A stretch of DNA of 35,439 bases. It comes from Candidatus Zambryskibacteria bacterium RIFCSPLOWO2_01_FULL_35_19 (GTDB taxonomy: Bacteria > Patescibacteriota > Minisyncoccia > Phycocordibacterales > WO2-35-19). Made by a program: the position numbers and the translations under genes. The notes beneath the pieces are model-generated. The model was given only the letters and a program-made list of their open reading frames with translations. It had not been told where the DNA came from and did not search any database. Positions 4,014 through 26,058 of this stretch are shown piece by piece (the stretch's first letter is position 1; every line of letters starts with the position of its first letter). The stretch spans positions 1 to 35,439 of the forward strand of contig MHWA01000014.1 of the NCBI GenBank assembly GCA_001825335.1, written 5' to 3'.

Positions 4014-5297
4014 TTATTTCTTAGAAATCTTCTCTTTACCTCCCATATAAGGACGGAGCACTTCAGGAATAACAATAGAGCCGTCGGCTTGTTGATAGTT
4101 TTCTATAATACCAATAAGTGGCCTACCAGAAAGAGCGGTGTTGTTTAAGGAGTGAGCAAACTTTAATTTACCATCTTCGTCTCTATAACGAATATTTAAT
4201 CTGCGTGTTTGAAAATCATGAAAATATGAAGCCGAACCAGTTTCTCTGTATTTGTTTTCTCCCGGCAACCACACTTCAATATCATATTTTTTAACTTGAC
4301 CAAGACCAAGATCTCCTGCACAATTGATAACTACATGATACGGCAATCCTAGAGCTTGCATAATCTCTTCTGTATTTGACTGTATTTCTTCATGGTGCTT
4401 AACGGATTCTGTATGACTAGCTTCACACAAGATGACTTGCTCAAATTTATAAAATTCATGCACTCGGAGAATTCCTTTTGTATCTTTACCATGCGCTCCA
4501 GCTTCACGCCTATAAGCATTAGAAAATCCGAGCATCTTTTTTGGTAAATCTTTTTTATCCAAAATTTCATCCATAAAATAACTCATCATAGCCACTTCTG
4601 CGGTGCCCGAAAGATACTCGCCATCTTGAGTTTTATATAAATCTTCTTCTCCCTGTGGCAAATATCCAGTCCCTATAAACGGTTCTCTTCTAAGAAGGGA
4701 TGGGACAATCATCGGCACAAAATCCTTTTTTTTATTTTGAAAAAAATCATTTACAAATTGCCATAAAGCAAATTGCAGTTTCGCCCCGTCGCCGATCAAA
4801 AAGTATCCTCTAAATCCAGCGACCTTGGCACCTCTTTCCAAATCAATCATACCTAAAGCCAACATCAAATCTATATGATCTTTAGGTGTAAAACTAAACT
4901 CTGGGATCTGGCCTACTTTTTTTATTTCTTGATTACTCTCTTCATCACTGCCTTCAGGCACCGACATATCGGGGATGTTTGGCACAGTCACCATCAGCTT
5001 TTGCCATTCAGTCATCACCTCTTTTAATTCTTCTTCTTTTTTTTGTATTTTTTCTTTTAGGGGTAGTGTTTCTTCTATTAATCTCCTTTTTTCTGCGATA
5101 TTTCCCGCTTGTCCAAATTTGGCTATCTCTTCACTTGCTTTATTTTGTTTGGCTTTTTTTTCTTCAAGATCTTGACTTATGGCCTTCCTTTTATCATCTA
5201 TTTCAATAAGTAAATTAACATCAAAATCAATCTGTTTTTTCTTGGCGCCTTCTTGTATTAACGCGATATTTTCTCTTATAAATTTGATGTCTAACAT
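4014..5297 (-). CDS. serS: Seryl-tRNA synthetase
   Basis: MLDIKFIREN start, a coiled-coil N-arm and class II core motifs (FRREAGAHGKDTKGILRVHEF, GSASYFHDFQTRR...). I trimmed the ORF-track start at 5339 to the internal ATG at 5297 that matches the canonical SerRS N-terminus. Confidence 0.93.
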   Translation of the reverse strand: MLDIKFIRENIALIQEGAKKKQIDFDVNLLIEIDDKRKAISQDLEEKKAKQNKASEEIAKFGQAGNIAEKRRLIEETLPLKEKIQKKEEELKEVMTEWQKLMVTVPNIPDMSVPEGSDEESNQEIKKVGQIPEFSFTPKDHIDLMLALGMIDLERGAKVAGFRGYFLIGDGAKLQFALWQFVNDFFQNKKKDFVPMIVPSLLRREPFIGTGYLPQGEEDLYKTQDGEYLSGTAEVAMMSYFMDEILDKKDLPKKMLGFSNAYRREAGAHGKDTKGILRVHEFYKFEQVILCEASHTESVKHHEEIQSNTEEIMQALGLPYHVVINCAGDLGLGQVKKYDIEVWLPGENKYRETGSASYFHDFQTRRLNIRYRDEDGKLKFAHSLNNTALSGRPLIGIIENYQQADGSIVIPEVLRPYMGGKEKISKK

Positions 5298-5367
5298 AAT
5301 TTTAAATTTCGTAACCCTTATTTCGTTACTCGTTTTCATTTTACCATTTGCTATAATAAAAACAAAT

Positions 5368-6258
5368 ATGCCTTATAAAATAAACACCCTCAAAAAAGCC
5401 GACTGGCCCCCTCTTTTAAAAGAGATTAATCAACTTCCGAATAAGCTTTTTTATGTTGGCAAAGTGGCAGATTGGTCTCGGAAACTTCTTTGCGTAGTAG
5501 GGGCTCGCAAAAATACAAATTATGGTAGAGAAGCCGTTGAGACTTTTATAGAGAGTTTGCGTGGCTACCCGATTACCATTGTTTCTGGTTTGGCTTTAGG
5601 TATAGACTCTATCGCTCATCGAGCAGCTCTTAAAAACAACCTTCCCACTATCGCCGTCCCCGGTTCTGGACTTTCGCTTGAAGTTTTACATCCTCAATCT
5701 CATACTCACTTAGCAACAGAGATTATTGAAAAAGGCGGAATGATGATGAATGAATTTGAACCAGAATTTAAAGCTACTCAATGGAGTTTTCCACAAAGAA
5801 ATCGTATTATGGCGGGAATGAGTCATGCCACTTTAGTCATAGAAGCCGAACAAAAGTCAGGCACACTCATCACTGCAAGACTAGCCACCGAATACAACCG
5901 CGATGTTTTGGCCTTACCCGGCAGTATTTTTAATACCACAAGTCAAGGGCCTCATATGCTTATTCGTTTGGGAGCTACACCTATCCGTGATAGTAATGAT
6001 ATTTTGGAAGCTCTGCATTTGGAATCCCACTCCGCCTCGTCAGACTCGGCTTCGCGGGACGAGGAAAAATATTTTGATTGTTCGGAAAAAGAGATGCTAA
6101 TAATTAAACTTTTAATAGAACCGTTGGAGCGTGATGAAATTTTGCGACAAATAAATACTAAACATCAAATCCCTATTGGGGAAATCCAAACTTTCCTCTC
6201 TCTCCTCGAGCTCAAAGGCCTTATTAAAGAATCTCTTGGAGAAATCCGCCTCACTTAA
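5368..6258 (+). CDS. dprA: DNA processing protein DprA/Smf
   Basis: Rossmann-fold DprA motifs are present (VVGARKNTNYG, IVSGLALGIDSIAHRAAL, GTLITARLATEYNRDVLALPG). The start is set at ATG 5368, because the ORF-track extension overlaps serS antisense. A TATAAT box at 5352-5357 lies just upstream. Confidence 0.9.
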   Translation: MPYKINTLKKADWPPLLKEINQLPNKLFYVGKVADWSRKLLCVVGARKNTNYGREAVETFIESLRGYPITIVSGLALGIDSIAHRAALKNNLPTIAVPGSGLSLEVLHPQSHTHLATEIIEKGGMMMNEFEPEFKATQWSFPQRNRIMAGMSHATLVIEAEQKSGTLITARLATEYNRDVLALPGSIFNTTSQGPHMLIRLGATPIRDSNDILEALHLESHSASSDSASRDEEKYFDCSEKEMLIIKLLIEPLERDEILRQINTKHQIPIGEIQTFLSLLELKGLIKESLGEIRLT

Positions 6259-6268
6259 TCTTAAAATG

Positions 6269-6293
6269 AAATACAATGGGCGCCATTGTATTT
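6269..6293. repeat. REP-like hairpin copy 1 (aaatacaatgg-gcg-ccattgtattt). It could also act as the dprA terminator.
   Basis: 11-bp perfect stem with a 3-nt GCG loop followed by a T-run. The same core recurs at 6947-6973 and 7915-7933 with the loop reverse-complemented (CGC). Confidence 0.7.
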
Positions 6294-6315
6294 TTAGTTG
6301 TGGTATAATTTTATT

Positions 6316-6936
6316 ATGAATAATAGGGATTATAAAGATTTTGCCAGAGATGAGATTTATCATATCTACAACAGAGGTGTTGGGAAGATGAAAATATTTT
6401 TAGATGAGATGGATTATAAGGTGTTTATGTCCAGATTAAAAGAAAATTTATTCTCAAAACTTATAGATTATTCCCTTTTACCAAAATATGCGACCAGAAG
6501 AAAAACTTTACCACCGAATTCTTTTGATTTGATTTCATACTGTTTGATGCCAAATCACTTTCATTTATTAGTAAGACAAAATACAGACTTACCTATAACA
6601 CAACTGATACTAAAAATATGCACTGGTTATTCAAAATATTTTAATAAAAAATATGATCGAGTTGGTGTAGTTTTTCAAGATAGATTTAAAGCAGTGAGAA
6701 TAAAAAAGAACAATCAGTTGTTATGGGTTTCTTACTACATACACAAAAATCCCGTTGACAGCAAATTAGTTAAATATCCAGAACATTATAAGTGGAGTAG
6801 TTTTTCAGAATATAAAAATTTAGTTTTTGAACCTATCTGTAAAAAAGACATCATAACTAAACAATTTAAAGAAACTTCTGATAAAAATATGGAATCAGAA
6901 TTAATATCCAATCTTGATTTGCTGATAGATTATTAG
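6316..6936 (+). CDS. REP-associated tyrosine transposase (RAYT) / IS200-IS605 TnpA-like HUH Y1 transposase
   Basis: HUH motif in LMPNHFHLLV and catalytic-Tyr region YYIHKNPV. About 206 aa from ATG 6316. An extended -10 (TGgTATAAT, 6301-6309) sits 6 nt before the ATG. The gene is flanked by inverted copies of the same hairpin. Confidence 0.8.
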   Translation: MNNRDYKDFARDEIYHIYNRGVGKMKIFLDEMDYKVFMSRLKENLFSKLIDYSLLPKYATRRKTLPPNSFDLISYCLMPNHFHLLVRQNTDLPITQLILKICTGYSKYFNKKYDRVGVVFQDRFKAVRIKKNNQLLWVSYYIHKNPVDSKLVKYPEHYKWSSFSEYKNLVFEPICKKDIITKQFKETSDKNMESELISNLDLLIDY

Positions 6937-6946
6937 AACACACTCA

Positions 6947-6973
6947 AAAATACAATGGCGCCCATTGTATTTT
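6947..6973. repeat. REP-like hairpin copy 2 (aaaatacaatgg-cgc-ccattgtatttt), inverted relative to copy 1
   Basis: Same stem as copy 1, with loop CGC instead of GCG, which marks the opposite orientation. A T-run follows. Confidence 0.7.
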
Positions 6974-7068
6974 TGTTAAGGTAAATTTTAATAGTAGTTG
7001 ACAATAATCTTCAATTGTTATTTACTTATAGATAGAAGCCCTCAGGGGTTAATAAAAAGGAGGTATAA

Positions 7069-7890: not shown

Positions 7891-7914
7891 ATAAAATTTT
7901 TTCTTCCTAAAAAA

Positions 7915-7933
7915 TACAATGGCGCCCATTGTA
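7915..7933. repeat. REP-like hairpin copy 3 (tacaatgg-cgc-ccattgta), same orientation as copy 2
   Basis: The 19-nt core is identical to copy 2. No T-run follows, so it is not simply a terminator. Confidence 0.65.
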
Positions 7934-12779: not shown

Positions 12780-13007
12780 ATGCAAAATAAAATCAAAAAA
12801 GGAATCTACAAACATTTTAAAGGTAAGGAGTATGAGGTGATTGATGTTGGGACACATTCAGAAACTTTAGAACCACACGTAGTTTATCAAGCGCTTTATG
12901 GAGAACAAAAAATTTGGGTCCGCCCGCTTTCAATATTTCTAGAAGAAGTAGACAAACCAGAAATAAATTATAAAGGGCAGAGATTTACTTATGTCAGAGA
13001 AAAATAA
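12780..13007 (+). CDS. DUF1653-family small protein
   Basis: The 75-aa product YKHFKGKEYEVIDVGTHSETLEPHVVYQALYGEQKIWVRPLSIF matches my recollection of the DUF1653 pattern. The start is set at ATG 12780 because the ORF-track extension overlaps tRNA-Leu. Confidence 0.65.
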   Translation: MQNKIKKGIYKHFKGKEYEVIDVGTHSETLEPHVVYQALYGEQKIWVRPLSIFLEEVDKPEINYKGQRFTYVREK

Positions 13008-13965
13008 TAAACCAAAAATTATTGTAATCCTCGGGCCAACCGCTAGTGGCAAAAGTGATGTTGCTGTAGAGCTTGCCCTTCGACTTCGCTCAGGACAAGC
13101 CAAAAAATTTGGAACTAAAGGGGCAGAGGTTATTTCTGCTGATTCAAGACAGGTATATAAAGGACTTGATATTGGCACTGGTAAAATTACTAAAAAAGAA
13201 ATGAAAGGAATAAAGCATCACCTGCTTGATGTGATAAGTCCCCGCAAACAATTTTCTGCTTCCGATTTTGTCCGTATAACAAATGACGCGATCGCGCAGA
13301 TTGTTATATCTGGGAAGATACCCATTGTCTGTGGTGGTACTGGATTTTATATTGATGCTTTGCTTGGTGAAAAACAACTTGCCGAAGCGCCACCAAATGA
13401 AAAATTGAGAGCTCAACTTGAAAAGAAAAGTGTTGAAGAATTATTTAAAATATTAAAAAAACTAGACCCAGAAAGAGCCAAAAATATAGACGCCAAAAAT
13501 GGAAGAAGATTAGTTAGAGCAATTGAGATATGTGAAGCTTTGGGCCCCAACTCCGCTTCTCGCTTCGCTCAAGCTACGCTGGGCAAGAAAGTCCCCTCAA
13601 AATACGATGTCATTAAAATAGGAATAAAAACAGAAGAAAAAGAATTAAAAAATAGGATAAATAAAAGAATAGAAAAGTGGTTTAAAATGGGACTTTTGAA
13701 AGAAGTCAGAGATTTACATCAAAAAGGTCTCTCTTGGAAACGAATGTCAGAGCTTGGACTTGAATATAAGATAGTGGCCAATCATCTCCAAAAAAAGATT
13801 TCAAAAGAAGAAATGATAGAGAGGATGCAGATAGAAACTTGGCAATACGCTAAACGTCAAAAACAGTGGTTTAAAGATAAAAACATCATTTGGCTTCCAT
13901 CAAAAATAAATTTAGTAGAAAAAAAAGTAAAAAGATTTTTAGAAGGCGGGCCCACGAGGATTTGA
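12991..13965 (+). CDS. miaA: tRNA dimethylallyltransferase
   Basis: P-loop ILGPTASGKS, ISADSRQVYKGLDIGTGKIT and GGTGFYIDAL. It carries two GC-rich in-frame patches (see findings). The 3' end overlaps tRNA-Trp on the opposite strand. Confidence 0.9.
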   Translation: MSEKNNKPKIIVILGPTASGKSDVAVELALRLRSGQAKKFGTKGAEVISADSRQVYKGLDIGTGKITKKEMKGIKHHLLDVISPRKQFSASDFVRITNDAIAQIVISGKIPIVCGGTGFYIDALLGEKQLAEAPPNEKLRAQLEKKSVEELFKILKKLDPERAKNIDAKNGRRLVRAIEICEALGPNSASRFAQATLGKKVPSKYDVIKIGIKTEEKELKNRINKRIEKWFKMGLLKEVRDLHQKGLSWKRMSELGLEYKIVANHLQKKISKEEMIERMQIETWQYAKRQKQWFKDKNIIWLPSKINLVEKKVKRFLEGGPTRI

Positions 13966-17781: not shown

Positions 17782-20496
17782 TTAAACCCCTACCCCAGCA
17801 GAGAGAGTCTCTAGAATAGAAGACCCGATAATAGCGCCACGACGGCCTTTTTTGATATCAAAGACAAATTCACCTACATCAGTTTTGGATGGATCATTTT
17901 TGACAGAAACAGACACTACTCCCCCTTTCAATATTTCTTTAGAGATGATAAAAGAAGCTACTTGATTTAGTATTTTATTTTGAATCACCCTTTTCAAAGG
18001 CCTTGCGCCGTATTGAGGGTTGTATCCTTCTTTGGCTAAATATTCATAAACTTCATCAGTTAATTCTAATGAAATCTCTTTAATAGCCAATCTCTCTCTT
18101 ACCAAATCAATCTGAATTTTAACAATCTCTCTTATAGCTTCCATAGGTAATATATCAAAGATAACAATATCATCTACTCTGTTTAAAAATTCTGGTCTGA
18201 AGAAATCTTTCATAGCTTCCATCACTTTTTCTTTAACTCCGGCATATTCACCCCCTTTTATATCTCTATCACCGAAGCCCATTTTTTCCATCTTGTCTAT
18301 ATAATTGGCCCCAATGTTTGAGGTCATAATAATAATAGTATTTTTGAAGTTAACAGTTCGGCCTTTAGAATCAGTTAGCCGACCGTTGTCCAAAACTTGA
18401 AGGAAAACGTTAAAAACTTCTGGATGAGCTTTTTCAATTTCATCAAACAAAACAATAGAGTATGGACGATGTCTAACCATCTCCGTTAAACCACCACCAT
18501 CATCAAAACCGACATAACCAGGGGGAGCGCCTATCAGTTTAGAAACAGAGTGCTTCTCCATAAATTCTGACATATCCACCCGAATCAAGGCTTTTTCATC
18601 ATCAAACATAAATTCAGCCAAAGCTTTAGTCAGCTCTGTTTTGCCAACTCCAGTTGGACCTAGAAAAATAAAAGAGCCAATTGGTTTGTTTGGGTCAGAA
18701 ATGCCGGCACGAGAGCGTTTGATGGTATCAGCTATTTTTTTGACCGCCTCATCTTGACCTACTATGCGTTTCTTCAATTCATCTTCCATCCTAGAAAGTT
18801 TTTCGGCTTCTTCTTCAAGCATTCTAGAAACAGGAATACCAGTCCACTTGGCTACTATATTGGCTATATCATTTTCTGTTATTTCTTCTTTTAAGATACG
18901 ACGAGAACTTTGAAGTTTTTTGAGTTTTTTCATATTGGCGTCAAGACTTTTTTCTAAAGCAGGAATCTGTCCATAACGAACTTCAGCTGCTTTGCCAAGA
19001 TCTACTCTAGCTTCAGCTTCTTCAGCTTCTAAACGAGCAAATTCAAGCTCTTTTTTAATCCTTTTTATTTCTCCAACACTTTCTTTTTCATTTTTCCATT
19101 TCAAATCAATTTCTCTAGTTTTTTCTCTCAAGTCAGCAATTTCTTTTTCAATTTCTTGAAGACGAGTTTTGGCTTTACTATTTTTACCTTTGGCTTCTTT
19201 TTTAAGAGCTTCTTTTTCAATTTCAAGTTTTATCACTTTTGAGTTAGTTTCTTGAAGCACTGGTGGCATATTTTCAAGCGAGATTTTTAAATGACTCGAA
19301 GCTTCATCTATAAGGTCAACTGCTTTATCTGGCAAAAATCTATCAGCAATATATCTAGCAGAAAGTACCACCGCCGCTTTAATAGCGTCATCAGTTATAC
19401 GAACCCCGTGATAGAGTTCATATTTTTCTTTTAATCCGCGCAATATAGTTGTGGCGTCATCTATTGATGGCTCACTTATAAAGACCGATTGAAAACGACG
19501 AGTCAAAGCTGGGTCTTTTTCTATATGTTTTTGATATTCTTTGATGGTAGTAGCTCCGATGGCTCGCAATTCCCCTCTGGAAAGAGGAGGTTTCAACATA
19601 TTGGAGGCATCAAGAGAACCTTCGGCTGATCCAGCACCAACAATAGTATGAATTTCATCTATAAAAAGTATAATCTTACCGTCTGATTTTTCTATTTCTT
19701 TTATGATATTTTTGAGTCTTTCTTCAAATTCACCTCTGTATTTGGTCCCCGCCACTAAAAGCCCCAAATCAAGAGATACTATTTCTTTATCTTTTAAAGA
19801 CTCTGGTGCATTACCAGAAGCAACTCTCATAGCCAAACCTTCAGCGATAGCGGTTTTACCTACACCCGCTTCTCCAATTAAGATAGGATTATTTTTGGTC
19901 CGACGAGAAAGAATCTGGATAATACGAGAAATTTCTTCATCTCTACCAATGACTGGGTCAAGTTTGTTTTCGCGAGCCAATTTGGTAAGAGAGCGAGTAT
20001 ACTTTAGGATGTTTTTATTTTTACGATAAGTTTTGGTCTCTGGCATTCTTCCTTGTTTTATTTCTTGAATCAAAAACAAAACTTTTTCTTTTTCAATTTT
20101 GAAACGAGAGAGAGTGTCTTTAGCTAAACTTGGAATATCAAGACAAGCAATAAAAATATGTTCAGTAGAAACAAATTCATCATTCATAGATTTCGCTACT
20201 TTTGAAGAATGTTCAATGATTTGAGCCAACTCCGGAGTAAGAAAAATCTGATAAGAGGGGGACATAGTGCCACCAGAAGCAGTGCCTTCCATTGCTTCAA
20301 AAATAGAATCAGTCAAAAGAATAGTATCTACTTCCATTTTATCCAAAATAGAAGCCACCATACTTTCTTCTTGTAAAATAAGTGCGGCCAAAAGATGAAG
20401 TGGTTCTACGTGATTTTGACTACGTTCGATAACCAGCTCGTGAGCTTTTCTGATGACTTCTTTGGCTTTAGTTGTAAATTGATTAAATGGTGTCAT
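17782..20496 (-). CDS. clpB: Chaperone ClpB (Hsp100 disaggregase)
   Basis: 904 aa with a Clp_N domain, NBD1 ([23 protein letters not shown]), a long coiled-coil M-domain and NBD2 ([24 protein letters not shown]). Confidence 0.95.
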
Positions 20497-21446: not shown

Positions 21447-22697
21447 TTATTTAACTATCTTCTTGAGAGCGGAGATAAAAGAGTCTAAATCAGATTTTTT
21501 GGTATTACGACCCAAAGTTATACGAAGAGACGAGGAGGCACACTCTTTATTACTCACAGCTTCAATCACATAAGAGCCATTTTCTAGACTCAAAGCATGA
21601 CAAGCAGAAGCGGCCGAGACCGCAAAACCGAGAGTGTCTAATTTAATAACCAAAAACTCACTATCTATTTTTTGGAAACCCGACTTCGCTGAAAGCTTCG
21701 GCGAGGCGAAGCATATATTAATGTTGTTAGGTAATCTATTTTCTAAATCACCATTTAAGGAAGTGTTTGGTATTTCTTTTAAAATTTCAGTTATTGCATA
21801 ATCACGCAACTTTGTTAAACTTTTTGATTCTTTTTCCCTCTTTTTTGTTGCGATTTCCAAAGCTTTAGCGAGGCCGGCAACAGCAACTACATTTTCTGTC
21901 CCAGATCTTAATCCTCCTTCCTGTCCCCCACCAAAAATAATGGGGGAGATTTTGACTCCAGTTTTGACAACTAAAAGACCCATTCCTCTTGGCCCATATA
22001 TTTTAATACCATCCAAGACAAGCAAATCAGCTCCCAATCTTTCCAAAGAAACATTTTCATAAAGAACACTTTGACTAGCATCCACCAAAAGATATGGCCC
22101 TACCAAAAGTTTATTTTGTACAAGGAGAGTCCTTGTACTTTTATATTCTCTTATTACTTTAGCTATTTTTTGGATCGGTTGGATAGTGCCTATTTCGTTG
22201 TTTGCATGTTGAATAGCTATTAAAACAGTATTTTCTTTTATTTCTTTTTTGATTGAATCTGGATTTATTATTCCTTTTTCATTTGGAGTAATAAAAGAAA
22301 CTTCTGCTTTCCCTTCTTTTAATAAATATTTGATCGGTTCCAAAACTGCTGGATGCTCTATTGTTGAGACTATGATATGTGGCAAAGCAAAACCAAAGTC
22401 GGACTTTGGTTTTGTGCCAAGAATGACATCTTCTCGGCAAATTCCTAAAATAGCAATATTTAATGATTCGGTGCCAGAGGCAGTAAAAAAAACTTCGCTA
22501 GCTTTGCAATGCAAAATACGAGCAATCCTTATTCTCGCTTCCTCTAGTATGTTTTTAGCCCGCTCCCCTTCTGTGTGTAAAGAAGAAGGATTAGCCCAAA
22601 AATCTTTTTGAATTTTTGTCATCTCTTTTGCCACACTTAAATCAACCGGCGTGATAGAGGCATAATCTAGAAAGATTCTTTTTTCTTTGTTTTTCAT
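21447..22697 (-). CDS. Cysteine desulfurase (class V aminotransferase, NifS/IscS-like)
   Basis: IFLDYASITP, SLHTEG, FTASGTESLN, HANNEIGTIQP, DASQS, RSGTENV and AASACH (active-site Cys loop). Confidence 0.88.
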   Translation of the reverse strand: MKNKEKRIFLDYASITPVDLSVAKEMTKIQKDFWANPSSLHTEGERAKNILEEARIRIARILHCKASEVFFTASGTESLNIAILGICREDVILGTKPKSDFGFALPHIIVSTIEHPAVLEPIKYLLKEGKAEVSFITPNEKGIINPDSIKKEIKENTVLIAIQHANNEIGTIQPIQKIAKVIREYKSTRTLLVQNKLLVGPYLLVDASQSVLYENVSLERLGADLLVLDGIKIYGPRGMGLLVVKTGVKISPIIFGGGQEGGLRSGTENVVAVAGLAKALEIATKKREKESKSLTKLRDYAITEILKEIPNTSLNGDLENRLPNNINICFASPKLSAKSGFQKIDSEFLVIKLDTLGFAVSAASACHALSLENGSYVIEAVSNKECASSSLRITLGRNTKKSDLDSFISALKKIVK

Positions 22698-22753
22698 ATT
22701 ATTATTCTGTTATTATTTTGAATAATACCACAATTAATGTATAATATACGATT

Positions 22754-23239
22754 ATGGTAATAGATTGGAATTTAGTTGTTTTTTTTGCGCCTTTATTGGC
22801 TTTGGTGATTTCTTTGGTGGCTCTTATACTAGTAATAATAATGTATTTTAGAGTCTCTAGAATATTTAGAAGTGCTAATGTTCCAGACATCGAAAGACTT
22901 TTAAAACTACACACCAAGACCTTAGAAGACCTTATCAAGTTTCAGGCGGACTCAACTATGTATATGAAATCCTTAAATAATAGGATAAAAGGCAAGATAG
23001 GAAAAGTCCCTACTTTAAGATTTAATCCATTTAAAGGCACTGACCTAGGTGGCAACCAAAGTTTTTCTTCTGTTCTAGCAGACGAAGAAGGAAACGGAGT
23101 GGTCATAACCAGTATGCATACCAGAGAACGCACTAACGTTTTTGCCAAACCATTAAAAGACTGGAAGAGTGATTACGGACTAACATCAGAAGAAAAAGAA
23201 GTAATAAAACAATCAAAAATAAATGGAGGAGAAAAATAA
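22754..23239 (+). CDS. DUF4446-family membrane protein
   Basis: N-terminal TM helix, then LRFNPFKGTDLGGNQSFSSVLADEEGNGVVITSMHTRERTNVFAKP. This matches my recollection of the DUF4446 core (RYNAF.d.GG.lSFS.ALLD..g.GvVl.S...R). Confidence 0.6.
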   Translation: MVIDWNLVVFFAPLLALVISLVALILVIIMYFRVSRIFRSANVPDIERLLKLHTKTLEDLIKFQADSTMYMKSLNNRIKGKIGKVPTLRFNPFKGTDLGGNQSFSSVLADEEGNGVVITSMHTRERTNVFAKPLKDWKSDYGLTSEEKEVIKQSKINGGEK

Positions 23240-24728
23240 AACAGAAAAAATAAAAACAATACCCCGCGAACCAGTCGTCTCTGTCATGGGTCATATTGAT
23301 CATGGCAAATCCACTTTGCTTGATTATATAAGAAAAAAAAATACTACTGAAAAAGAAGCTGGTGGCATTACTCAACACGTATCTGCTTACGAAGTAGAAA
23401 AAGAGATAGGTGGCCAAAAAAGAAAAATAACTTTTATAGATACTCCCGGACATGAAGCTTTTTGTTCTATCAGAGAGCGAAGCACCGATGTGGCTGATAT
23501 TGCAATCCTTGTCGTTTCAGCCGAAGATGGAGTAAAACTGCAAACTATTGAAGCTTTAAATTGTATCAAAAAAGATAATATCCCTTTTATAGTGGCTATA
23601 AATAAAATTGACCGCCCTAGTGCCGATATTGAAAAGATTAAAACCGACCTAGCAGAAAATGAAATTTTAGTAGAAGGTTGGGGTGGTACTATACCAGTAG
23701 TGGCTATATCGGCCAAAACCGGAGAAGGCGTCCCTGAACTATTGGAAATGATACTTCTCCAATCAGATATAGAAGAATTAAAAGGTGACCCAACTGCTTT
23801 AGCAGAAGGTTTTGTAATAGAGAGCGACCTTAATCCCAGAGAGGGTATTTCTGCTACTTTGATAATAAAAAATGGCTCTCTTAAAATGGGCCAGTTTATA
23901 GCTAGTTATGGAAGTTATGTTCCTATTAGAACCATAGAAGATTATAAAGGTGAAAAAATAAAAGAAGCCACTTTTTCTAGTCCTGTCAGAATAGTTGGTT
24001 GGAGTGGTGAGCTAAAAGTGGGAAATCGTTTCAAAACTTTTTTAAAAAAAGAAGAAGCTATCAAATTTGCTTCTGAAAATCAAAATAGTTTAGAAACAAA
24101 AAAAGTTCAAAACTTTTCAAATGGAGAAACATTTGGAGTGGTTATAAAAACAGACACTTTTGGTTCATTAGATGCAGTAGAGCACGAACTCCAAAAACTA
24201 AGTAATGAAAAAATTTCCGTTAAAATAATTTCAAAAGGAATTGGCACTATTACAGAAAAAGATTTAAAAACTGCAAATATAAAAAATAGTCTCGTTTTAG
24301 GTTTTAATGTTAAGGTAGACAAAAATGCAGAAATATTGGCTCTTCGAGATAATATAAAAATAAAAACATATAAAATAATCTACGAATTGGTTGATTATGT
24401 AAAAAATGAAGTGATAGAAGCTACCCCAACCGAAAATGTAGAGATAGTAACTGGAAGTATTAAGTTACTTAGGATTTTTAATAAAAACAAAAACAAGCAA
24501 GTAGTCGGTGGTCGAGTAAACGAAGGAGAAATCAAAATAGGAGCCACAGTTAAAATATTTAGAAGAGAATCTTTACTCGGTGAAGGTAAAATAAAAGAAC
24601 TTCAAACACAAAAAATAAAAATTGATTTAGTCCAAGAAGGTCAGGAATTTGGAATGATGGTAGAGTCAAAAATAGAATTAGCAGAAGGAGATATTTTAAA
24701 AACGACTTCTATTATCAAACAAAAATAA
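23223..24728 (+). CDS. infB: Translation initiation factor IF-2, short form lacking the N-terminal region
   Basis: G-domain motifs (VMGHIDHGKSTLLD, DTPGH, NKID, SAK) followed by domains II-IV. 501 aa. Confidence 0.93.
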   Translation: MEEKNKTEKIKTIPREPVVSVMGHIDHGKSTLLDYIRKKNTTEKEAGGITQHVSAYEVEKEIGGQKRKITFIDTPGHEAFCSIRERSTDVADIAILVVSAEDGVKLQTIEALNCIKKDNIPFIVAINKIDRPSADIEKIKTDLAENEILVEGWGGTIPVVAISAKTGEGVPELLEMILLQSDIEELKGDPTALAEGFVIESDLNPREGISATLIIKNGSLKMGQFIASYGSYVPIRTIEDYKGEKIKEATFSSPVRIVGWSGELKVGNRFKTFLKKEEAIKFASENQNSLETKKVQNFSNGETFGVVIKTDTFGSLDAVEHELQKLSNEKISVKIISKGIGTITEKDLKTANIKNSLVLGFNVKVDKNAEILALRDNIKIKTYKIIYELVDYVKNEVIEATPTENVEIVTGSIKLLRIFNKNKNKQVVGGRVNEGEIKIGATVKIFRRESLLGEGKIKELQTQKIKIDLVQEGQEFGMMVESKIELAEGDILKTTSIIKQK

Positions 24729-25091
24729 ATGAAACATATAAATAGATTTAAAGATGACAAATTTATTTCACTTATCTCTAGATTTGCTGCTGAATATTTT
24801 TCTATAGAATCAAGCAAAGATTCATTGATGACAATAACCAAAACAGAGCTTTTTGACCGAGGCAAAAGAGCTTCGGTTTATTTTACTGCTCTACCAGTAG
24901 AAAAAGAAGGAGCTGCTTTAGAGTTTGCCAAACGACGTAGACAAGATTTCCGTCGGTTTATGATGTCTAAAAAATCTTTTGGCTTTACTCCTAAAATAGA
25001 TTTTTATATTGATGAGGGTGAACACAATCGTCAAAAAATAGACAGACTTTCAAATGAATCTAATATTGAAAATTTAATAAATAAAAGCTAA
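24729..25091 (+). CDS. rbfA: Ribosome-binding factor A
   Basis: The 120-aa ORF starts immediately after the infB stop, in the conserved infB-rbfA synteny. Its size and ITKTELFDRGKRASVYF-type KH-like core fit RbfA. Confidence 0.7.
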   Translation: MKHINRFKDDKFISLISRFAAEYFSIESSKDSLMTITKTELFDRGKRASVYFTALPVEKEGAALEFAKRRRQDFRRFMMSKKSFGFTPKIDFYIDEGEHNRQKIDRLSNESNIENLINKS

Positions 25092-25105
25092 AATAGTTTT
25101 TATTC

Positions 25106-25177
25106 GGCCACGTAGCCAAGTAGTAAGGCATTCCTCTGCAAAAGGAATATACGCGAGTGCAATTCTCGCCGTGGCCT
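25106..25177 (+). tRNA. tRNA-Cys (anticodon GCA)
   Basis: Acceptor GGCCACG/CGTGGCC, anticodon arm TTCCT-CTGCAAA-AGGAA, T-arm GCGAG/CTCGC, discriminator T (U73, typical for Cys). Confidence 0.8.
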
Positions 25178-25213
25178 CATTTGTTAAGAAATAAAATAAC
25201 TTGACAAATAATT

Positions 25214-25300
25214 GCTCGGGTGGTGGAATTGGTATACACGAAGGACTTAAAATCCTTTGGTCGCAAGACCTTGCGGGTTCAACTCCCGCCCCGAGCACCA
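25214..25300 (+). tRNA. tRNA-Leu (anticodon TAA), with CCA encoded
   Basis: Acceptor GCTCGGG/CCCGAGC, anticodon arm AAGGA-CTTAAAA-TCCTT, long variable arm, 3' ACCA. Confidence 0.85.
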
Positions 25301-25302
25301 GC

Positions 25303-25375
25303 CCGCTCATAGCTCAGTTGGTAGAGCAGCTCCCTCTTAAGGAGAATGTCCTAGGTTCGAATCCTAGTGAGCGGA
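25303..25375 (+). tRNA. tRNA-Lys (anticodon CTT)
   Basis: Acceptor CCGCTCA/TGAGCGG, D-arm GCTC-AGTTGGTA-GAGC, anticodon loop CTCTTAA, T-arm CTAGG-TTCGAAT-CCTAG. It starts 2 nt after the preceding CCA. Confidence 0.8.
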
Positions 25376-25426
25376 CATGATAGAAAAATATGAACTTGCT
25401 TCATATTATGTTATATTATTTCAGTC

Positions 25427-25507
25427 GGGCAAGTGGTGGAATGGTAGACACGCTAGCCTTAGGAGCTAGTGCCGCAAGGCGTGGAGGTTCAAGTCCTCTC
25501 TTGCCCA
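25427..25507 (+). tRNA. tRNA-Leu (anticodon TAG)
   Basis: Acceptor GGGCAAG/CTTGCCC, anticodon arm CTAGC-CTTAGGA-GCTAG, long variable arm, T-arm GGAGG-TTCAAGT-CCTCT. Confidence 0.85.
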
Positions 25508-25627
25508 CAAAATTACACAATATTTTTTAAAATAATTCTATACTAAACGCTTACTTGTCCCGCCGTAGCTTTATGCAAAGGAGGAGCGTCCTAATATTGT
25601 GTTTGTTGTAATAAATGATATAATGCA

Positions 25628-26058
25628 GTTAGGTTTTCGTTTCGACAGCTACTCTAACTTTTTTAGTTAGGGAGGAAAGTCCGAACATTTACTCGCCCTT
25701 GTGGCGATTCAAACGGTAGCGGGTAATACCCGTCGCCAATTTTGTTCACTAAGAGTGAGTACAAAATTGAGCGTCCCGAGTATATCGAGGGACAATCCTT
25801 CGACAAGCTCAAGATACTCAATTTTGCAACCACTTTCAGTGGGCAAAGTTGGTAGAGTTGCGAACAGAAACGATCCGGTTAAGTCCGGCTGAAACGGCAA
25901 AATACTTACTGGAGTGCAAGGCCGTGTCCACCTTTGTGTGGAAGTGCCGCTCGAGTTTTAGAGTAATCTAAATCCTAGATAAATTGCTGGAAAACCCGCC
26001 TTCGCTTAAAGCTTCGGCGTGGTAAAACAGAATTCGGCTTATGAGAATGAAAACCTAA
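25628..26058 (+). ncRNA. rnpB: RNase P RNA, bacterial type A
   Basis: Universally conserved P4 strands are present: GGAGGAAAGTCCG (25671-25683) and ACAGAATTCGGCTTAT (26027-26042). P1 pairing is aggttttc/gaaaacct. GGTAGCGGGTAATACCCGTCGCC forms the P8/P9-like region. The ends are approximate. Confidence 0.85.

Follow-up and report, generated by a model that had tools for sequence, protein, structure and literature searches.

Rickettsia palindromic elements (RPEs) were reportedly described by Ogata and colleagues in 2000 and 2002. In Rickettsia felis, 85 RPEs lie in open reading frames (ORFs) and three in RNA genes (PMC1166351), and the elements are reviewed in PMC10969869. Repetitive extragenic palindromic (REP) sequences and REPINs occur with RAYT transposases (Bertels and Rainey 2011, PMC3116915; PMC3337134). 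For RNase P RNA, STRR repeats are placed inside the gene of heterocyst-forming cyanobacteria by a paper cited by title in PMC2858038 (Vioque 1997), passages of which list helix P19 for some bacterial type A and type B RNase P RNAs. Passages of Lui et al. (2021, PMC8172020) describe diverged RNase P RNAs of the Candidate Phyla Radiation (CPR) that fall under Rfam thresholds, with helices extended or missing. A literature search for coding palindromes, or for REPINs and RAYTs, in Patescibacteria found no paper. Here we analyze a 35,439-nt stretch (the window), one whole contig of a Candidatus Zambryskibacteria genome (G000; 510 kb (0.51 Mb), 35% G+C, 91% complete), which carries a short hairpin repeat, termed here the TTCGC family, both in a cysteine desulfurase gene (copy A) and in the RNase P RNA gene rnpB (copy B).

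We consider it likely that copies A and B are two copies of a miniature, non-autonomous insertion element of ~28–34 nt that was inserted at both sites. This reading is drawn from orthologous sites whose occupancy differs between species, some having the element and some not, and from a desulfurase site that is filled in either orientation. Features of the window are collected in Table 1.

Table 1. Features of the 35,439-nt window discussed in the text
Feature	Position	Strand	Remarks
Weak, doubtful TTCGC match in the C-terminal part of dprA (5179-6258)	6023..6073	+	E = 0.034
RAYT-like Y1 transposase gene	6316..6936	+	own REP, core TACAATGG-CGCC-CATTGTA, at 6272-6295, 6951-6974 and 7910-7933
TTCGC copy in miaA (12991-13965)	13557..13592	+	E = 1.2e-6; in frame, sense, read SRFAQATLGKK; site short in five congeners
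Cysteine desulfurase (IscS/NifS type) coding sequence, 416 aa	21447..22697	-	hosts copy A and two further in-frame palindromes
TTCGC hairpin repeat, copy A	21674..21706	+	nhmmer E = 1.1e-5; antisense to the desulfurase gene; in-frame reading SPKLSAKSGFQ
Palindrome core ACAAGGA-CTC-TCCTTGT in desulfurase	22118..22138		in frame, ~residues 187-196; third variable loop
Perfect 13-bp-stem palindrome in desulfurase	22388..22414		in frame, ~residues 95-105, TKPKSDFGFA; second length-variable loop in the genus
Intergenic TTCGC copy between the tRNA cluster and the rnpB promoter-like TGATATAAT	25545..25585	-	E = 0.003
RNase P RNA, bacterial type A, 426 nt	25633..26058	+	RF00010; hosts copy B and a 117-nt P9 rod
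117-nt quasi-palindromic rod in place of the small rnpB P9 hairpin	25736..25852	+	-56 kcal/mol, z = -10.5; not of the TTCGC family
TTCGC hairpin repeat, copy B	25989..26022	+	nhmmer E = 7.4e-6; RF00010 insert columns; within RNase P RNA

The two matching segments and their repeat family

An earlier note, made from the letters of this DNA, had reported a near-identical 33-nt pair in the desulfurase coding sequence and the RNase P RNA. Both strings stand letter for letter where it had placed them and differ by 3 substitutions and 1 indel, a match not expected by chance. As the note had also stated, copy A lies antisense within a protein gene and copy B sits directly 5' of the conserved P4 strand ACAGAATTCGGCTTA inside the RNase P RNA; the protein gene is the 416-aa ORF, in which copy A encodes ...ASPKLSAKSGFQK.... 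A 24-nt degenerate core pattern matches only these two segments in the window and occurs in 0 of 100 dinucleotide-preserving shuffles, and a blastn-short search against the whole 510-kb genome gives E = 2e-5 over a 28-nt core (26/28 matches). Copies A and B are reciprocal best matches in the genome, at 85% identity compared with at most 74% to any other copy, and have in common the subfamily features GGCG-A/T-GG, one extra loop base and an AAACCCG lead-in.

The pair belongs to a dispersed family. A profile built from 19 copies and searched with nhmmer at a cut-off of E < 0.01 recovers 26 copies in G000, and the core TTCGCT + 0–3 bases + A(A)AGCTTCG is found ~10 times in the genome versus ~0 in shuffles. 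Comparison of copies with their flanks yields the consensus CCCCAC-TTCGCT-AAA-GCT(T/A)CG-CGGGG-CAAAG, a GC-rich unit of 28–34 nt with CCCC/GGGG inverted termini. The common predicted fold comprises a 6–7 bp outer stem (CCCCAC / GCGGGG or variants), a 3x3 internal loop (TTC / TTC), two inner G-C pairs and a hairpin loop of 3–5 nt, followed by a tail that is usually CAAG or CAAAG. This fold exceeds shuffles in stability on either strand; the excess is larger for the reverse strand, in which G.U takes the place of an A.C mismatch. Stem positions covary, the paired fraction being 0.83 versus 0.66 with shuffled partners, a value reached in 0 of 1000 shuffles, for copies that are related to one another. 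The 3x3 internal loop is almost invariant, and in the outer stem one position is C-G, T-A or G-C and a second is A.C, C-G or G-C. The letters of the GC-UUCG-GC mini-hairpin that had been pointed out in both copies are indeed present; however, they do not correspond to the predicted fold, which uses the outer stem, and are not conserved in the family, most members of which read GCTTCG-CGGGG. The mini-hairpin was therefore rejected as a functional core.

Four of the six reading frames of the consensus are open, and copies inside long ORFs span at least four frame/strand combinations, with sense readings PTSLKLRG and HFAKASRG and antisense readings FAPRS.., LPREA..AKW and SPKLSAKSG. The repeat is thus an element at the level of nucleotides and not a protein motif. 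Genic copies are always in frame and their host genes are intact; Pfam identifies the host ORFs in the window as miaA and dprA, and those outside it as gap, rnr, tatD, comEC and the genes for a HIT protein and a methyltransferase. Two doublets occur, one inverted (C20:33291-33376) and one in direct tandem (C13:8879-8955), and the other copies are single. The inverted doublet is REPIN-like and lies ~25 nt upstream of the 16S rRNA 5' end.

The family extends well beyond G000. The strict motif is present in 15 of 17 congeners, with 0 hits for a reversed-pattern control, and in 36 of the 201 Patescibacteria genomes sampled across the phylum, where the control gave 7 hits. The phylum-level copies often contain identical 20-mers, also across distant classes.

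Occupancy of the host sites among relatives

The desulfurase was compared with orthologs drawn from 16 congeners, two other genera of the same family and one further family. Its best solved relative is IscS2 of A. fulgidus (4r5f; E = 3e-69, residues 9–414), and solved desulfurase homologs show an 11-residue gap exactly opposite copy A. Lys232 and Cys366, the pyridoxal phosphate lysine and the catalytic cysteine, are invariant in 19 orthologs. The variable site is flanked by ...NINICF and DSEFLVIKL, and four states are found there: no insert (G003, G010, G015, G017, G018 and G030); the TTCGC element in antisense, adding 33 nt (G000, G001, G005 and G007); the element in sense, read SHFAKASRD (G008 and G011); and unrelated palindromes that add from 21 to more than 100 nt (G002, G004, G006, G009, G012, G013, G014 and G016). 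All of these inserts are in frame. Changes of state were read from a tree of the desulfurase alone, which, with 9 of its 17 inner branches open, is too poorly resolved for counting events; only supported sister pairs were used. One such pair consists of G010, which is empty, and G011, which holds the sense copy (support 100/98), and in another, G012 and G008 hold different elements (95/88). The palindrome that G004, G012, G014 and G016 have at the site forms a dispersed family of its own, present on five contigs of G016 in both orientations and not found in G000.

G008 and G011 carry the same sense insert allele, in which a further small palindrome takes in the DSE codons. These two genomes are not sisters in the gene tree, since G011 pairs with the empty G010 and G008 with G012, which suggests either exchange by recombination or parallel insertion. 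An AlphaFold model of the desulfurase (mean pLDDT 75, pTM 0.80) gives values of 50, 61 and 55 for the 10-residue blocks at the three inserts, with confidence also low in the catalytic-loop region; the model weakly suggests that the inserts form flexible surface loops.

Orthologous copies at the desulfurase site are 81–94% identical, with third codon positions at 0.75–1.00, compared with 71–73% and 0.50–0.54 for the remainder of the gene. This excess may reflect one of three causes: selection on the nucleotides, for mobility or for a host function; homogenization among copies; or repeated recent insertion. Turning to the relation between the two sites, G007 carries copies A and B at the same places as G000. 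The rnpB copies of both genomes read GGCGTGG and the desulfurase copies of both read GGCGAGG, so both insertions are older than the G000/G007 split.

The rnpB gene of G000 is diverged. It was not found by Rfam at gathering thresholds (gathering score 100) and appears only at relaxed thresholds, where the RF00010 match scores 60.4 bits (E = 9e-18) with model positions 1–367 all aligned. Both conserved P4 strands, GAGGAAAGUCC and ACAGAAUUCGGCUUA, are present, P9 is long and P12–P14 are reduced. Copy B had been assigned to the P18 region; the covariance-model alignment places P18 at 25955–25974, with a GUAA loop, and assigns copy B to insert columns that follow the P2 3' strand and precede the P4 3' strand, at J2/4 or the P19 position. 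Its first 3 nt overlap the P2 3' strand of the model, and it is predicted to fold as a discrete hairpin. The segment is not a canonical conserved helix, as the earlier note had allowed it might be, and further copies exist in the genome. Seven congeners (G004, G005, G008, G010, G012, G013 and G015) have only a minimal linker at this site, only G000 and G007 have the TTCGC element there, and unrelated hairpins occupy the site in G002, G003, G014 and G017 and in every order-level relative. Because the order-level relatives have an unrelated hairpin at this position and the seven congeners have none, copy B may take the place of P19. In metagenome runs from several studies, 95–100% of sampled words from the rnpB stretch are present; in RNA runs, ~10% are.

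An extended −10-like TGATATAAT lies at 25616–25624, 8 nt upstream of the first aligned rnpB base. By its sequence, it probably gives rnpB its own promoter downstream of the tRNA cluster.

Copy B adds ~31 nt and so contributes to the length of rnpB, as had been suggested; most of the extra length, however, comes from the separate 117-nt P9 rod, which is found in the rnpB of G000 and G005. A homologous rod module occupies the P19 site in G006 and in G018, a member of another genus, with TTCGC copies in the module apex, and G246 has two rod-module copies in one rnpB. Pieces of the rod also lie upstream of the 16S gene in G015, beside a tRNA in G233 and in the 23S group I intron region of G017. 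The rod has the look of a structural module that travels between genes for structured RNAs.

Other sites show comparable variation. In miaA, a hotspot after ...AIEICxALG-KVP holds TTCGC copies in G000, G010 and G002 and other sequences elsewhere; two more variable sites in this gene carry long inserts in G001, G014 and G016. On another contig of G000 (C4, ~100015–100055; L003 1505–1545), a TTCGC copy abuts the 5' end of tRNA-Gly(GCC), the RNase P cleavage site. A 10-nt direct repeat, GCGGCC-T/A-TGG, stands on both sides of this copy, the second repeat unit being the tRNA start, and the tRNA-Gly leaders of G002 and G003 are without the element. Possibly, the direct repeat is a target-site duplication that regenerates the tRNA. 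Perfect hairpins with a stem of ≥9 bp and a loop of ≤10 nt number 185 across the G000 genome versus 36 in a shuffled genome, and 63 of the 185 fall well within open frames of 200 aa or more. Families among them include CCCCTC..CTTAA..TTAAG..GAGGGG and TTCCAAGGAC-T-GTCCTTGGAA.

Mobilization and alternative readings

G000 has three Y1-transposase (RAYT-like) genes, and such genes are present in 16 of the 17 congeners. Besides the gene in the window, two lie on contigs C1 and C7, each with a different REP. Each of ~40 RAYT loci in the genus and two other genera is flanked by a strong palindrome of its own. REP types also reach the desulfurase: the palindrome at 22118..22138 shares its type with the repeat next to the C7 RAYT gene, and at the hotspot itself the insert of G009 matches the C7 type and that of G013 resembles a G001 type. 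Two candidate mobilizers were rejected. A scan of the flanks of the ~40 RAYT genes found no TTCGC copies, and for a DUF559 nuclease, which has a single gene on C10 plus a fragment on C7, the profile gave no TTCGC copy on C10. As a separate observation, a hairpin AGACGCT-G-AGCGTTT stands beside a DnaA-box-like word, TTATCCACA, upstream of several RAYT-like genes (L075, L079, L086 and L125). In G000, the arms of this hairpin enclose a TTCGC copy at two loci (C18 ~17900–18000 and window 25545–25600), and the copy at 25545..25585 has a longer composite in common with the copy on C18.

On the insertion reading, copies would arise by insertion at the DNA level, and those that survive would be in-frame copies in flexible protein loops or copies at peripheral positions of structured RNAs. 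The load tolerated would be ~11 extra residues or one extra hairpin, and the rnpB copy would form part of the transcript as a P19-like hairpin flanked by the 3' strands of P2 and P4. The earlier note's suggestion that the same mobile mini-element had entered a protein gene and the periphery of a ribozyme is supported by the dispersed family and by congeners in which each site is empty. Several points weigh against this reading. The signs of target-site duplication consist of a possible TAAA at rnpB, seen in G007 against the empty G008, and the 10-nt tRNA-Gly repeat, and alignments of the desulfurase site show no clear duplication. The repeated use of identical sites is accounted for by conjecture only, either that these sites are tolerant or that palindromes attract further insertions. 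A poorly resolved single-gene tree stands in for the species tree. No transposase is linked to the TTCGC family, 0 of the ~40 RAYT loci having copies at their flanks, and G104 (five strict copies) and G079 (three) give no PF01797 match at 99–100% completeness. The excess conservation among orthologs and the identical 20-mers in distant classes could equally mean a host function.

Among the alternatives, we regard it as unlikely, yet the strongest of them, that the family consists of true REPs or REPINs, which a resident RAYT (Y1) would mobilize in trans by acting on a single-stranded DNA hairpin. The wide presence of RAYT genes in the genus, the REP-like build of a 30-nt imperfect palindrome whose mismatch and tail are both conserved, the inverted doublet upstream of the 16S gene, and the RAYT-cognate REPs in neighboring in-frame desulfurase loops and, in G009 and G013, at the same hotspot would all fit such a family. 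Opposed to these are the ~40 RAYT genes whose own palindromes are never of the TTCGC family, a TTCGC density near RAYTs that is not clearly raised (8 hits in 92 kb), the element's lack of a GTAG-type head, and the copies in G104 and G079, where no Y1 transposase is detectable. Somewhat less probable still is that the hairpin is a structured motif useful to the host, bound by a conserved factor or exapted as a P19 helix, and kept by selection rather than selfish. Orthologous copies are far better conserved than surrounding synonymous sites, identical 20-mers recur in distant classes, and the stem covaries around an invariant internal loop; copies also lie near structured-RNA genes (in the tRNA-Gly leader, upstream of 16S, and both in front of and within rnpB), and a hairpin of some kind stands at the P19 position in every order-level relative. 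A motif of this kind is difficult to reconcile with copies that run with or against transcription and fall in four reading frames, with both orientations at one desulfurase site, with orthologous sites in many congeners that lack the element and hold unrelated palindromes instead, or with copies that have no single strand or context in common.

The remaining two alternatives concern the A/B pair itself. The earlier note had offered, as an option, that part of one locus was copied into the other, and a one-off transfer between desulfurase and rnpB by ectopic gene conversion or copying, with no element involved, would explain why the two are reciprocal best matches that share subfamily features. 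That relationship leaves copying a small likelihood as the origin of this subfamily; the ~24 further copies in the genome and the many in other genomes make copying unnecessary and largely refute a single transfer, and in G007, which has both copies, each is closer to its ortholog than to its paralog. We therefore consider such a transfer very improbable. Chance similarity or an assembly artifact, which the short length of the matching segments might invite, is hardly credible at all given the empty shuffles and the blastn-short E value, the same insertions in independently assembled genomes of other species, and the near-complete recovery of rnpB words in the metagenome runs. Insertion of a miniature element at both sites thus remains the reading that we favor.

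Comparison with known systems

Read from sequence, one 30-nt family seems to be tolerated, and probably expressed, both as an 11-residue loop of an essential Fe-S enzyme and as an extra helix of an essential ribozyme in a 0.5-Mb genome. This would extend the picture of selfish DNA in coding regions from Rickettsia to the CPR, and would offer a candidate source for two CPR oddities: unexplained insertions in conserved proteins and RNase P RNAs missed by standard models. Masking TTCGC-type repeats should help RNA-gene detection and protein alignment in CPR genomes. A wider proposal, which we advance tentatively and consider rather doubtful as a whole, is that the TTCGC family represents a phylum-wide, RAYT-independent class of ~30-nt mobile elements, near-identical across distant Patescibacteria, that seeds protein loops and ribozyme helices; that the rnpB P19 hairpin was captured from it; and that the periphery of CPR RNase P RNA is built from mobile hairpins and rods hopping between helices. 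The notion of hopping derives from the 117-nt rod, which is in P9 in G000 and at the P19 site in G006 and G018.

For the RNase P RNA, passages of PMC8172020 offer a likeness in RNAs that fall under the Rfam threshold, as the G000 rnpB does at 60 bits; the extensions described in those passages are not attributed to dispersed repeats or to modules shared between helices. With STRRs, as far as the title and the citing passages go, the TTCGC family has in common a genome-wide short repeat that also enters a peripheral, length-tolerant part of rnpB. STRRs, however, are tandem heptamers, whereas the TTCGC family is a single hairpin unit, and the STRR report, to the same extent, is without in-frame protein insertions.

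REP and REPIN sequences resemble the family in being imperfect palindromes of 20–40 nt whose mismatch is conserved, which number in the tens, persist vertically and share their genome with RAYT genes. The TTCGC family differs in flanking no RAYT examined, in being present in genomes without a detectable RAYT, and in lacking a GTAG head. Many of its copies are also intragenic and, judged by reading frame, would be translated, rather than extragenic.

Judged by analogy, the closest counterpart of the TTCGC family is the RPE. Both are dispersed hairpin repeats in a reduced genome that stand in frame in unrelated, intact housekeeping genes as well as in RNA-coding genes and intergenic DNA, both vary in presence and absence between relatives, and neither has a known dedicated transposase. 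At ~100–150 bp, RPEs are far longer than the 28–34 nt of the TTCGC unit, which is set apart from the RPE families by this size, and the hosts here are Patescibacteria, another phylum. Unlike with RPEs, a given site here takes up different palindromes, in either orientation, and the genome also contains RAYT genes with REPs of their own. The present analysis adds a single family that occurs in both a protein loop and a ribozyme helix, flips orientation and turns over at fixed hotspots, is independent of RAYT flanks and extends across a phylum.

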